Assembly (NCBI GenBank): GCA_944332815.1
Contig: CALVKQ010000003.1
Coordinates: 2,082-66,081, forward strand
Reading direction: 5' to 3'
Length of the DNA stretch: 64,000 nucleotides
From: an uncultured Clostridia bacterium
GTDB lineage: Bacteria; Bacillota; Clostridia; Christensenellales; CAG-917
Under the pieces are notes generated by a model. That model was not told the origin of the DNA, ran no database searches, and saw only the letters and a list, made by a program, of their open reading frames with translations. The position numbers and the translations under genes are program-made. Of this stretch, positions 41,590 to 44,942 are shown piece after piece. Each line of letters begins with the position of its first letter. Position 1 is the stretch's first letter.

Positions 41590-42075
41590 CTAAAACCCGA
41601 TGTACGGTTGCACCTTGGTTTTGTTATTTCTGTTTATGGTTTTTTCTTTTTCGTATTTGCCGCCGGTGAGAATGGTGAAGTCCTCCGCCGTGTATGCGGT
41701 GAGCGTGCCGCGGTAAGTGCACTCGGGAGCGATCGCCTCTATCTCCGTGCCCAGCGCGCGCCTGAAATCGTCGTCGGTGACGATGGGACGGTCCAGCCCC
41801 GAGGAAGACACGTTCAGAACGTACTCGTCCGGGAAGAGGTCGTCCACCTTGTCCAGCGCGTCGGAGAGCGCGTTATGCACCTTTTCGCAGTCGTCCAGCG
41901 TCACTTCGTCGGCGTGCCAGATGAACACGGTGAGGTTGAACCTGCCGTATTCTTTCGTGTAACGCACCTCCACCACCTCGAAACCGGAGTCGACCCCGGT
42001 CACGGTGTCGGCGACTATCCGTTCTATCCTGTCGCGCGCTTCCTGCGGAAGCGTCCGCGTCGCGTCCTTCGCCAT
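41590..42075 (-). CDS. rimP: Ribosome maturation factor RimP
   Basis: TLDDCEKV...YVLNVSS.GLDRP; first gene of the nusA-infB operon. Confidence 0.93.
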   Translation of the reverse strand: MAKDATRTLPQEARDRIERIVADTVTGVDSGFEVVEVRYTKEYGRFNLTVFIWHADEVTLDDCEKVHNALSDALDKVDDLFPDEYVLNVSSSGLDRPIVTDDDFRRALGTEIEAIAPECTYRGTLTAYTAEDFTILTGGKYEKEKTINRNNKTKVQPYIGF

Positions 42076-42093
42076 ATACTCTCCTTAAAACAA

Positions 42094-42115
42094 AGAGTGA
42101 GCAGCTGCTCACTCT
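42094..42115 (-). promoter_or_regulatory. rimP leader hairpin
   Basis: Perfect palindrome AGAGTGAGCAGCTGCTCACTCT just upstream of the rimP RBS, like the GAGTG..CACTC hairpin in Firmicute rimP leaders. Confidence 0.6.
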
Positions 42116-42227
42116 CAGTAGTTTCTACTTAAAGCATATATAAAATAGCACATTAAAATAATATATGCAAGCGTTTTGCGGCGTTTTATTCCGAAAAGGA
42201 GGATTTTTTGTGCAACGCGCGGCGCGC

Positions 42228-43808
42228 CTACATCCTTTCCGCGATTATACGCAGCAATTCCACGGTCGCGAACACGTCCGCCATGGCGCGGTGGGCGTTC
42301 ACGTGCGTGATGTCGAACATCTTCGTCAGGGCTTCCAGACCGACGTGACGGGCCTCGGGGATATATTTGCGCGCGAGGACGATGGTGTCTTCCAGTTCGT
42401 TGTCGAAGATGTACCCTTCCGCGGACGCATACTTGTTAAGGAGGGGGAAATCGTAGCCGGAGATGTTGTGCCCCACCAGCACGGCGTTTCTCGTGAACTT
42501 GAAAAAGTCGGGAAGTATCTCCTTGAAAGTGGGCATCCCACGCACCATATCGTCGTTTATCGCCGTCTTTTGCGCCACTTCGTCGGGGATGTGGCATTTG
42601 GGGTCCAGCAGCGTGGTGAAGGTTTCCGTCACCTTTCCGTCCACTATCCTTGCCGCTCCTATCTCTATCGGCTCTATGGTCGCGATGTCCAGCCCCGTGG
42701 CTTCGAAGTCGAAGACGACGAAAGTCTTGCCTTTGAAATAATCGGGTACGGGCTTTTCCGCGTCGTCGAAGAGGGATTTTTTCACCGCGACTTCCTTGAA
42801 AGGCTGCGGTTTAAGGACGGAATAATATCTGGGCACCGGCTTCGACGCCGCCGCCTGCACGGAAGAAAAATCTATCTTCGCCGTGAACAGAGCGTTTATC
42901 GCAAAGCTGGGCGCGCCGTTATAGGAGGATATGGTCACTTTGCCCGTGCATATCACTTCGTCTTTTTCGTTCAGGCTGTCAAAAGCGTCCGCGTCATCGG
43001 GGCGAGGGAAGCAAACGCAGTCCATCCTGCCCGTGGTATCGTCCATGAAAAAGCGGATGAGAGGGAGCTCCTCCGGCCCGTTTTTGGGGTCGTCGGGGGT
43101 GTATTTTTTGTTCTTGTAAGTGCGTTTGACGACGCCGCTTATCCTGCCGCAAAGCACGACGTTGTCCACCGCATGCCTGATGTCGCCGATATACGCCGGC
43201 ATCTGACTGATGCCCGATATCTTTCCTCTTGCGTAGATCTTCTTGACGGCTTCCGCGTATATAAGCCTGGAAGAACTGTCCTTCACCACCACGCTCTCCA
43301 TAGGATTCGTTATCACGGAAGCGTCACTGTCCTCCGTTTCGCGGAGCCCTACGGATATTTTGTGGTTGAAATTGAGGTCCAGAAAGTCGGCGAGTTCCTT
43401 CAAGGCGTCGGAGGAGCGCAGCATATTGCACATGGAATGTTCCAGCTCCAGGGTGACGGACACGGTGGAGTCGTTCACAGCGACGGTGATCTTATCGGGA
43501 GTGAGCATTCTCAGCACCAACTGGTTGTGAGTGTTGAAAAACTCCGCGATCTTATTGCGGACGGTGCTCTCGTCCGCGAATGTGCGGATATATTCCGCCC
43601 TTACGTCCACGCCGGCAAATATCTTTTTAAGCGTTTCGTCCACCTTCTTTCTGCATTCGTCGTCAAAAGCCCTCGCGTCGTACGCCGATATAAGGAAGCG
43701 CACGGCGAGAGTCCCGACATCCTTTTGATAGGACGCGGACTTGAATTTGAGCATGGGGAACGCTCCGCCCGTCAGTTTTTCAAACTCTTCCGTAAATTTA
43801 TTATGCAC
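42228..43808 (-). CDS. PolC-derived protein: PolC N-terminal domains + OB fold + DEDDh 3'-5' exonuclease, no PHP or polymerase core
   Basis: OB-like VVLCGRI...FFMDDTTGRMDCVCF...GKV; Exo motifs FVVFDFEATG, GHN...YD, HRAMAD; occupies the polC position upstream of rimP. Confidence 0.85.
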   Translation of the reverse strand: MHNKFTEEFEKLTGGAFPMLKFKSASYQKDVGTLAVRFLISAYDARAFDDECRKKVDETLKKIFAGVDVRAEYIRTFADESTVRNKIAEFFNTHNQLVLRMLTPDKITVAVNDSTVSVTLELEHSMCNMLRSSDALKELADFLDLNFNHKISVGLRETEDSDASVITNPMESVVVKDSSSRLIYAEAVKKIYARGKISGISQMPAYIGDIRHAVDNVVLCGRISGVVKRTYKNKKYTPDDPKNGPEELPLIRFFMDDTTGRMDCVCFPRPDDADAFDSLNEKDEVICTGKVTISSYNGAPSFAINALFTAKIDFSSVQAAASKPVPRYYSVLKPQPFKEVAVKKSLFDDAEKPVPDYFKGKTFVVFDFEATGLDIATIEPIEIGAARIVDGKVTETFTTLLDPKCHIPDEVAQKTAINDDMVRGMPTFKEILPDFFKFTRNAVLVGHNISGYDFPLLNKYASAEGYIFDNELEDTIVLARKYIPEARHVGLEALTKMFDITHVNAHRAMADVFATVELLRIIAERM

Positions 43809-43844
43809 ATTTGCCTCCGCCCCTTCGGTATCGGGTCAAAACTA

Positions 43845-44942
43845 TTATCGTTTTGGGCTATTTTTAGAATAGTCGGCTATGTAGTCCTCCAGCATGCTCA
43901 TGAACAGCGGCAACACCATCTTCCCCGGGACTTTTGCGACTATCTCGCCGTCGCGCAGGATGACGGACTTGTCTTTTCCGCCTGCTATCGCGAGGTCGCT
44001 GTTTTTGCCCTCGCCTATCCCGTTCAACGGACAGCCCATGACCGCTATTTTGAGAGGGAGCCGCACATGCGCGGTGGCGCGTTCCACCGCGGACGCCAGC
44101 CCCTCCACGTCTATCTCCGTGCGCGCACAGGTAGGACAGGATACGACTTCCGCGCAGTCCTTTTTCAGACCGAGCGAGCGCAGCAGCGTCTTTGCCGCCA
44201 GCACTTCCTCAACGGGAGGCGCGGACAGGGACACTCTCACGGTGTCGCCTATGCCCTCGCCGAGCAACATGCCTATGCCTATGGAGGACTTCACCAGTCC
44301 GCTGCGGAGCGTGCCTGCTTCCGTCACGCCGAGATGAAGAGGAAAGTCGCAGGCGGCAGCCGCTTTTCGGTTGGCACGCACCATGGTTATGACGTCGGAG
44401 GCTTTTATGGCGAGCACGATATCCTTCATGCCGCAGCTTTCAAACACATTCGCGCATTCGAGCGCGCTTTCCACCAGCGCGTCGCTCTCATCCATCCCGT
44501 CGAATTTCGGGTCCAGCGAACCGCCGTTCACCCCCACTCTGACGGGAACTCCTGCGTCCGCCATTCTCTTTGCGAGGTATTTTATTTCGGAGAAGTCCCT
44601 CATGTTGCCGGGGTTCATCCGTATCTTTTTCGCTCCGGCGTCCAGCGCCATGTGCGCCAATTTGTAGCTGTAATGTATGTCCGCGATAAGCGGCAGCCCC
44701 GTCCTTTTCGCGATCGTGCCGAACGCTTCCGCGGAGGCTTCGTTGGGCACCGCGAGCCGCACGAGGTCGCACCCTGCGTCCGTGAGCTCGTTTATCTGCG
44801 CGACGCAGGCGTCAACGTCAACGGTAGGCGTGTTGAGCATGGACTGTATGCTCACGGGCGCGCCTCCGCCTATCTTCACGTTTCCGACGCGGACTTGTCT
44901 TGTTTTTCGCCTTGACGGCATGTTTTTATCTTCGGTCTTCAT
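43845..44942 (-). CDS. ispG: HMBPP synthase
   Basis: IGGGAPVSIQSM, ADIH, R.NPGN, HLGVTEAG, SCPTCAR, VMGC. Confidence 0.97.
   Translation of the reverse strand: MKTEDKNMPSRRKTRQVRVGNVKIGGGAPVSIQSMLNTPTVDVDACVAQINELTDAGCDLVRLAVPNEASAEAFGTIAKRTGLPLIADIHYSYKLAHMALDAGAKKIRMNPGNMRDFSEIKYLAKRMADAGVPVRVGVNGGSLDPKFDGMDESDALVESALECANVFESCGMKDIVLAIKASDVITMVRANRKAAAACDFPLHLGVTEAGTLRSGLVKSSIGIGMLLGEGIGDTVRVSLSAPPVEEVLAAKTLLRSLGLKKDCAEVVSCPTCARTEIDVEGLASAVERATAHVRLPLKIAVMGCPLNGIGEGKNSDLAIAGGKDKSVILRDGEIVAKVPGKMVLPLFMSMLEDYIADYSKNSPKR

Follow-up and report, generated by a model that had tools for sequence, protein, structure and literature searches.

The interval between ispG and rimP in the window, by which is meant the whole 64,000 nt stretch of DNA analysed here, raises the question of what a 526 aa protein lacking any polymerase is doing in the chromosomal slot of polC, and of how a lineage carrying it replicates and proofreads its genome. 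The initial annotation had described an intact open reading frame at this position, and the gene, here termed X, does run without interruption on the minus strand (43808 to 42228). The features of the locus to which the text refers are these:

42228..43808, minus strand: gene X, encoding a 526 aa polymerase-less PolC derivative in the polC slot; GTG start, intact frame.
43575..43808, minus strand: NI domain of X (aa 1-78), homologous to PolC N-terminus I (hhalign 93.0%).
Within 43575..43808, minus strand: predicted site in NI for the C-terminal tail of DnaX (aa 1-8, 22-34 and 63-67), from the complex model.
43335..43574, minus strand: NII domain of X (aa 79-158), with a type II KH-like fold (hhalign 88.0% to PolC N-terminus II).
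43275..43328, minus strand: flexible linker of X (aa 161-178), pLDDT below 50.
42864..43271, minus strand: OB fold of X (aa ~180-315), from Pfam PF01336 and hhalign.
42768..42782, minus strand: position of the putative clamp-binding motif (aa 343-347), reading KKSLF here; from column counts and a shuffle test.
42231..42722, minus strand: DEDDh 3'-5' exonuclease domain of X (aa 363-526), with D367, E369, D453, H506 and D511.
43845..44942, minus strand: ispG, the upstream neighbour (Pfam GcpE), marking the polC slot.
41590..42075, minus strand: rimP, the downstream neighbour, marking the polC slot.

Pfam models place an OB fold at aa 250-298 and an RNase_T domain at aa 364-519, and all five DEDDh residues are intact, with the C terminus lying 15 residues past D511; an OB fold and a complete nuclease motif, as first proposed, are both present. 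The alignment-based structural model has a mean pLDDT of 90, the linker being its one disordered segment. No Rfam match was found over positions 41900-44100 of the window, and promoter and terminator scans around X returned matches at chance level only. Between X and rimP lies a 10 bp hairpin followed by a T-rich tail (42093-42116, minus strand), again with no Rfam match, which may terminate or attenuate transcription into the rimP-nusA-infB operon.

The claim that X begins with a PolC-like N-terminal domain (NTD) needed a profile test, because the Pfam models of the PolC N terminus (NI and NII) matched none of 72 X family members; these models also miss two of the three true PolCs scanned. 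Compared by hhalign with ten PolCs from the same order as the window genome, X was found to be collinear with them, the NTD matching at 96.3% (E 2e-9), the OB fold at 98.6% and the exonuclease at 100%, as against 0.1% for the controls against the PolC core. Taken together, the two N-terminal subdomains matched the PolC NTD at 96-97%, and a profile of the NTD, OB fold and linker, with the nuclease left out, matched the N termini of full PolCs down to E 4e-28. The OB fold is nearer to that of PolC (hhalign E 5e-19) than to that of DnaE (9e-11), the closest PDB sequence matches of the nuclease are PolC exonuclease domains, and a Foldseek search with the X model ranks the PolC structure 9qpc first, over 402 columns. 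A tree of the exonuclease domain alone did not separate X plus PolC from other DEDDh enzymes (support 70). In the alignment, the N-terminal half of the PolC PHP domain, with its HLHT, TDHG and GVEGY motifs, is replaced in X by a linker of around 45 aa, and no PHP domain match was found in the 72 family members; X is accordingly not a simple 3' truncation, as the initial annotation had recognised. By these sequence comparisons X is a derivative of PolC that has lost both the PHP half and the polymerase.

With standard family models, X scores 104 against the PolC model, for which the cut-off is 1043, and falls below the cut-offs of the DnaQ families TIGR01406 (61 versus 223) and NF004316 (58 versus 196); the generic domain model TIGR00573 is the only one passed (74.8 versus 71.5), and the nearest Atlas clusters are hypothetical or generically named. 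A 2011 paper reportedly related the PolC NTD to domain V of tau. In our comparisons NII matched the C-terminal domain of DnaX at 81.6% and NI at 53%, the latter a distant relationship, and homology of NI to the C-terminal domain of DnaE, also considered, had no support (1.5%). A fold search with NII, taken alone as the single-sequence NTD model is weak for NI (pLDDT ~50), returned KH-type structural matches (Z 7-8.7), with tau domain V absent among the best 50.

In the window genome, which is 97% complete, the PolC model TIGR01405 has no match over its cut-off and X is the only match to PF00929. A first sample of 41 genomes comprised 11 with a full PolC and 30 in which a short frame matched PolC in its exonuclease part only. 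The main sample took in 221 genomes from the order, all with a completeness of 90% or more, and a PolC core was called in them at E <= 1e-60: it is present in 110, and every one of the 111 PolC-less genomes, which make up 17 whole families on one branch, has X, broken across contigs in two of them (G096 and G119). Around 100 homologues are 450-590 aa long and share 25-76% identity; those with names come from uncultured Clostridia, among them Ca. Limadaptatus, at 63% identity, and a genome labelled Christensenella, at 45%. X is preceded by ispG and/or followed by rimP or nusA at all 41 of the loci examined, and full polC in the relatives holds the same slot, with at least one such neighbour at 19 of 20 loci. 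Neither of the two observations that the initial annotation had set against its own proposal, a polC elsewhere in the genome or a form that was unique and decaying, was made: no polC core, full-length or split, was found, and X is common to 17 families. A split or relocated polC was also rejected as a candidate for the 111 genomes as a whole, none having a PolC core at the above threshold.

An unrooted marker tree, built for 58 genomes on 11 locus proteins joined end to end and with three sparse rows dropped, separates the 40 X genomes from the 18 PolC genomes (SH-aLRT 100), and the change is read as running from PolC to X because elsewhere in the class PolC is the rule. Across the class (201 genomes), full-length X occurs, among the best 150 of 194 matches, only in eight X-clade genomes of this order, and no independent origin elsewhere was evident among these same matches. 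In PolC genomes, the N-terminal-profile matches listed, which take in all but the 11 weakest, fall in PolC-length frames, except in G197, where polC is split over two adjacent frames (G197:C107:38234-42139). The polC of G241, at G241:C1:1280076-1282400, seemingly lies in two frames or is broken by stops. Two loci in genomes of 0.9-1.1 Mb (L069 and L070, family f32) retain X but have no pyrH, dxr or ispG. Within family f4, L024 (G027:C6) has a full PolC, the exonuclease is sub-threshold in nine of 11 genomes and the G027 protein is without the usual D-x-E pattern; the PolC nuclease may be degenerate in L024 and its family.

The lineage had been proposed to replicate with DnaE alone, and this is upheld throughout the clade, in which DnaE is the only Pol III of replicase length. 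The window genome encodes one full C-family polymerase, DnaE, in a 1214 aa frame, and each of 30 X genomes checked has a single TIGR00594 match at E <= 1e-150. The motif HHDHEHCDH, by which a PHP domain is reported to be called active (PMC12926913), is complete in 29 of the 30, the last showing eight of the nine positions after re-extraction; the polymerase aspartates and clamp motif of DnaE are likewise complete in 29. With a PHP motif still present in DnaE, X would add a second proofreader rather than supply the only one, and the idea that it compensates for a dead PHP site was rejected. MutS is present in four of five X genomes checked. A 362 aa DnaE-like fragment (L002:853-1941, G000:C2) lies close to the end of a contig, where GC content is low, beside what we take to be a recombinase C terminus; considered as a possible part of PolC, it was set aside as degenerate and DnaE-like. 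PolC is reported to be often associated with strong gene-strand bias (PMC4070872). In G000, a rough gene call that yielded 1096 ORFs of 100 codons or more puts 354 of the 465 genes (76%) of the two largest contigs (C1 and C2) on one strand, and such bias is apparently retained here although the PolC polymerase is gone.

The linker that stands in place of the PHP half contains a short motif with the family consensus Q-x-[S/D/N]-[L/F/M]-F, which agrees with the clamp-motif consensus QL[S/D]LF given in PMC3919608. Among 77 sequences, the columns have Q in 60, S/N/D in 63, L/F/M/I in 67 and F in 52, and the pattern Q..[LIMF]F is found in 36 of the linkers, where the expectation is 1.3 from shuffling and 0.4 from the remainder of the protein. 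Even a loose form of the pattern is missed by 20 of the 77 members, and the window copy, KKSLF, is degenerate in having no Q; at the level of the family, X carries a putative clamp-binding motif. The ten PolCs have their clamp motif at the C terminus, and none was seen before the nuclease among the nine listed.

A second contact is predicted for the N terminus. In B. subtilis PolC is reported to be recruited by DnaX (PMC13220808), and the polymerase-binding site of E. coli tau is placed at its extreme C terminus (PMC1888804); the PolC NTD is described as unresolved in the cryo-EM structure (PMC12592400). When residues 1-160 of X were modelled with the last 106 residues of the DnaX of the window genome, the pair reached an ipSAE of 0.62 (0.62, 0.61 and 0.62 over the runs), compared with 0.01 for the best of three controls; the score mark, reached by 116 of 157 solved complexes and two of 215 mismatched pairs, is roughly valid for this pair, for which our own alignments were used. 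Of the partners suggested at the outset, DnaX is the one that this prediction covers. The runs have at least 84% of their contacts in common, with a partner pLDDT of 84, and the last 16 residues of DnaX, which include a conserved L-x-x-[LM]-F-G element, pack on NI in the model. A PDB sequence search with both modelled chains gave nothing better than E 0.04. The interface columns exceed the other columns of NI only slightly in conservation (mean entropy 2.70 versus 2.89), and the model may be biased towards a homologue-like contact, NI being itself a distant relative of the DnaX C-terminal domain. The tether of X predicted by this model is likely to be the clamp loader, through the DnaX tail, rather than DnaE.

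The DnaX C-terminal domain is kept in most X genomes, and the NTD of X was therefore rejected as a substitute for a lost tau domain. In five loci (L135, L167, L160, L161 and L171, of G098, G072, G110, G023 and G142 respectively) the dnaX frame ends at around 360-390 aa, mostly with the stop right past an A-rich stretch encoding KK or KKN, and in at least three of these cases the tau-like C-terminal domain resumes in another frame. These short frames may reflect frameshifting or slippage that yields gamma and tau, or an assembly error in a homopolymer.

The reading that we favour, and consider fairly probable, is that X is a PolC-derived second proofreader to DnaE, tethered to tau, with an additional, non-catalytic role in tethering. 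The ancestor would have had both PolC and DnaE1, each binding tau; with synthesis taken over by DnaE1, PolC would have shed its PHP and polymerase parts whilst retaining the tau tether, OB fold and nuclease, and the linker of the shortened protein would have acquired a clamp motif. X would then sit in the 'polymerase slot' of tau, gain access to primer ends with its OB fold and the help of the clamp, and, acting in trans, trim 3' ends that are mispaired or stalled, second to the PHP site of DnaE. There are reported precedents both for proofreading of DnaE in trans, by the PolC exonuclease of B. subtilis (PMC5627055), and for a clamp-binding second proofreader beside a PHP domain, in mycobacterial DnaQ (PMC11348249).

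The dN/dS analysis that had been called for gave 0.13-0.19 for X against three close relatives and 0.06 within a second family (f17), where measurable, the values being rough since synonymous sites are near saturation, with many rows saturated and two out-of-register L011 rows dropped. On these values X is under purifying selection and is not a decaying relic. Of the 41 copies sampled, 29, from 16 families, have perfect DEDDh residues, and the other 12 have lost them: all six of f25 and six of the eight of f39, which sit on separate branches of the marker tree, each beside active copies. In these dead copies all five catalytic positions are degraded, and the full length, NTD, OB fold and Q-x-x-F type motif are retained, with a dN/dS of 0.17 overall and 0.22-0.24 in the dead domain where measurable. 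Two separate lineages having lost the catalytic residues and kept the protein, X would also have a non-catalytic role; with the DnaE of the dead-nuclease lineages retaining its PHP motif, proofreading by X would not be essential everywhere.

The same copies are the argument for regarding X as chiefly a structural adaptor joining tau, the clamp and single-stranded DNA, with a dispensable nuclease and little part in proofreading. This nevertheless seems rather unlikely, as the nuclease is intact in most of the copies sampled and, in active lineages, no other domain is as well conserved (83-86% identity, versus 61-66% for the NTD); furthermore, all five dead-nuclease genomes checked carry some other PF00929 match, and such DEDDh proteins could in some of them have taken over. 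On the favoured reading, that of a tau-tethered second proofreader, the dead copies persist because the tethering role would outlive catalysis.

The initial annotation had envisaged an epsilon-like subunit, and in its strict form, as a dedicated proofreader bound directly to DnaE, this is improbable. X is indeed PolC-derived with a conserved nuclease, and is the sole PF00929 protein of the window genome; a PolC-DnaE interaction is reported in B. subtilis (PMC5627055), and clostridial DnaE1 is described as having a putative epsilon-binding patch (PMC3919608). However, X ends at the last nuclease helix, with no tail like the PHP-binding segment described for epsilon (PMC3664792), its NTD is predicted to be occupied by DnaX, and its nuclease is dead in two lineages; the intact PHP motif of DnaE also argues against X being the sole proofreader. 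The descent and the conserved nuclease stand; X is predicted to be tethered to DnaX and would be an additional proofreader, and it may in addition touch DnaE directly.

It is distinctly improbable that X has left the replisome to serve repair or recombination as a general 3' exonuclease on single strands. Degradation of single-stranded DNA would suit a DEDDh nuclease joined to an OB fold, and clamp motifs occur in repair proteins too, but both N-terminal domains are kept in all lineages, DnaX binding is predicted, and X is found in every PolC-less genome and retained when catalytically dead. Readings of X as a pseudogene in decay, as an artefact of assembly or as one half of a polC split in two are scarcely credible and are refuted by its distribution: the assemblies are mostly drafts, and two copies are broken across contigs, but the roughly 100 homologues, a dN/dS far below one, the confident structural model and the lack of a PolC core in 111 near-complete genomes all stand against it.

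More tentatively, the clade may represent a new replisome design, the fourth in bacteria, in which a polymerase-less PolC in the tau slot bridges the clamp loader, the clamp and single-stranded DNA as a near-universal component of the fork, with proofreading optional. Were this so, the PolC NTD would be a DnaX-binding module in all PolC bacteria, and strong gene-strand bias would outlast the PolC polymerase. X would amount to a natural dissection of PolC, in which the polymerase has been removed and the parts that the replisome apparently still needs have been kept. It bears on the role of the PolC NTD and on the division of labour in the clostridial PolC and DnaE1 system, called uncharacterised in PMC3919608; the predicted contact between NI and the DnaX tail is directly testable in B. 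subtilis, and the clade could show whether gene-strand bias is driven by PolC. These bacteria also lack the catalytic target of PolC inhibitors, which would matter for predicted effects on gut communities.

Some Clostridia are already reported to replicate with DnaE alone, and PolCs without the exonuclease have been described as well (PMC3919608). No description of a PolC keeping its exonuclease and losing its polymerase was found in the literature searched, which took in few subscription journals and no supplements, and the genus is not placed in the available part of PMC8035907. The retained remnant is the new part, although X could be listed in supplements among unassigned DnaQ homologues.

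Set against known systems, X has in common with PolC the chromosomal slot, the collinear NI-NII-OB-Exo order, the predicted DnaX partner and a DEDDh nuclease whose closest PDB relative is that of PolC itself; it differs in having no PHP, palm, thumb, fingers or HhH, and in the putative clamp motif preceding the nuclease rather than lying at the C terminus. E. coli Pol III epsilon (DnaQ) is likewise a separate DEDDh subunit working beside DnaE as the only replicase, and has its clamp motif in a linker, as X putatively does, but X is of PolC descent, has KH-like and OB domains and no C-terminal PHP-binding tail, and is partnered with a DnaE whose PHP motif is intact. The X clade resembles the DnaE1-only Clostridia, from which PolC polymerase is likewise absent, in having a single DnaE with the PHP motif HHDHEH[C/H]DH, a clamp motif and a C-terminal domain; no retained PolC fragment is described for those bacteria in the available part of PMC3919608, whereas here the remnant is fixed in 17 families. 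By analogy, the best functional counterpart of X would be the non-canonical DnaQ of mycobacteria, reported to be an extra clamp-binding DEDDh proofreader beside a PHP-proofreading DnaE1 (PMC11348249), from which X differs in origin and architecture, in its predicted tether to the clamp loader and in its persistence when the nuclease is dead.
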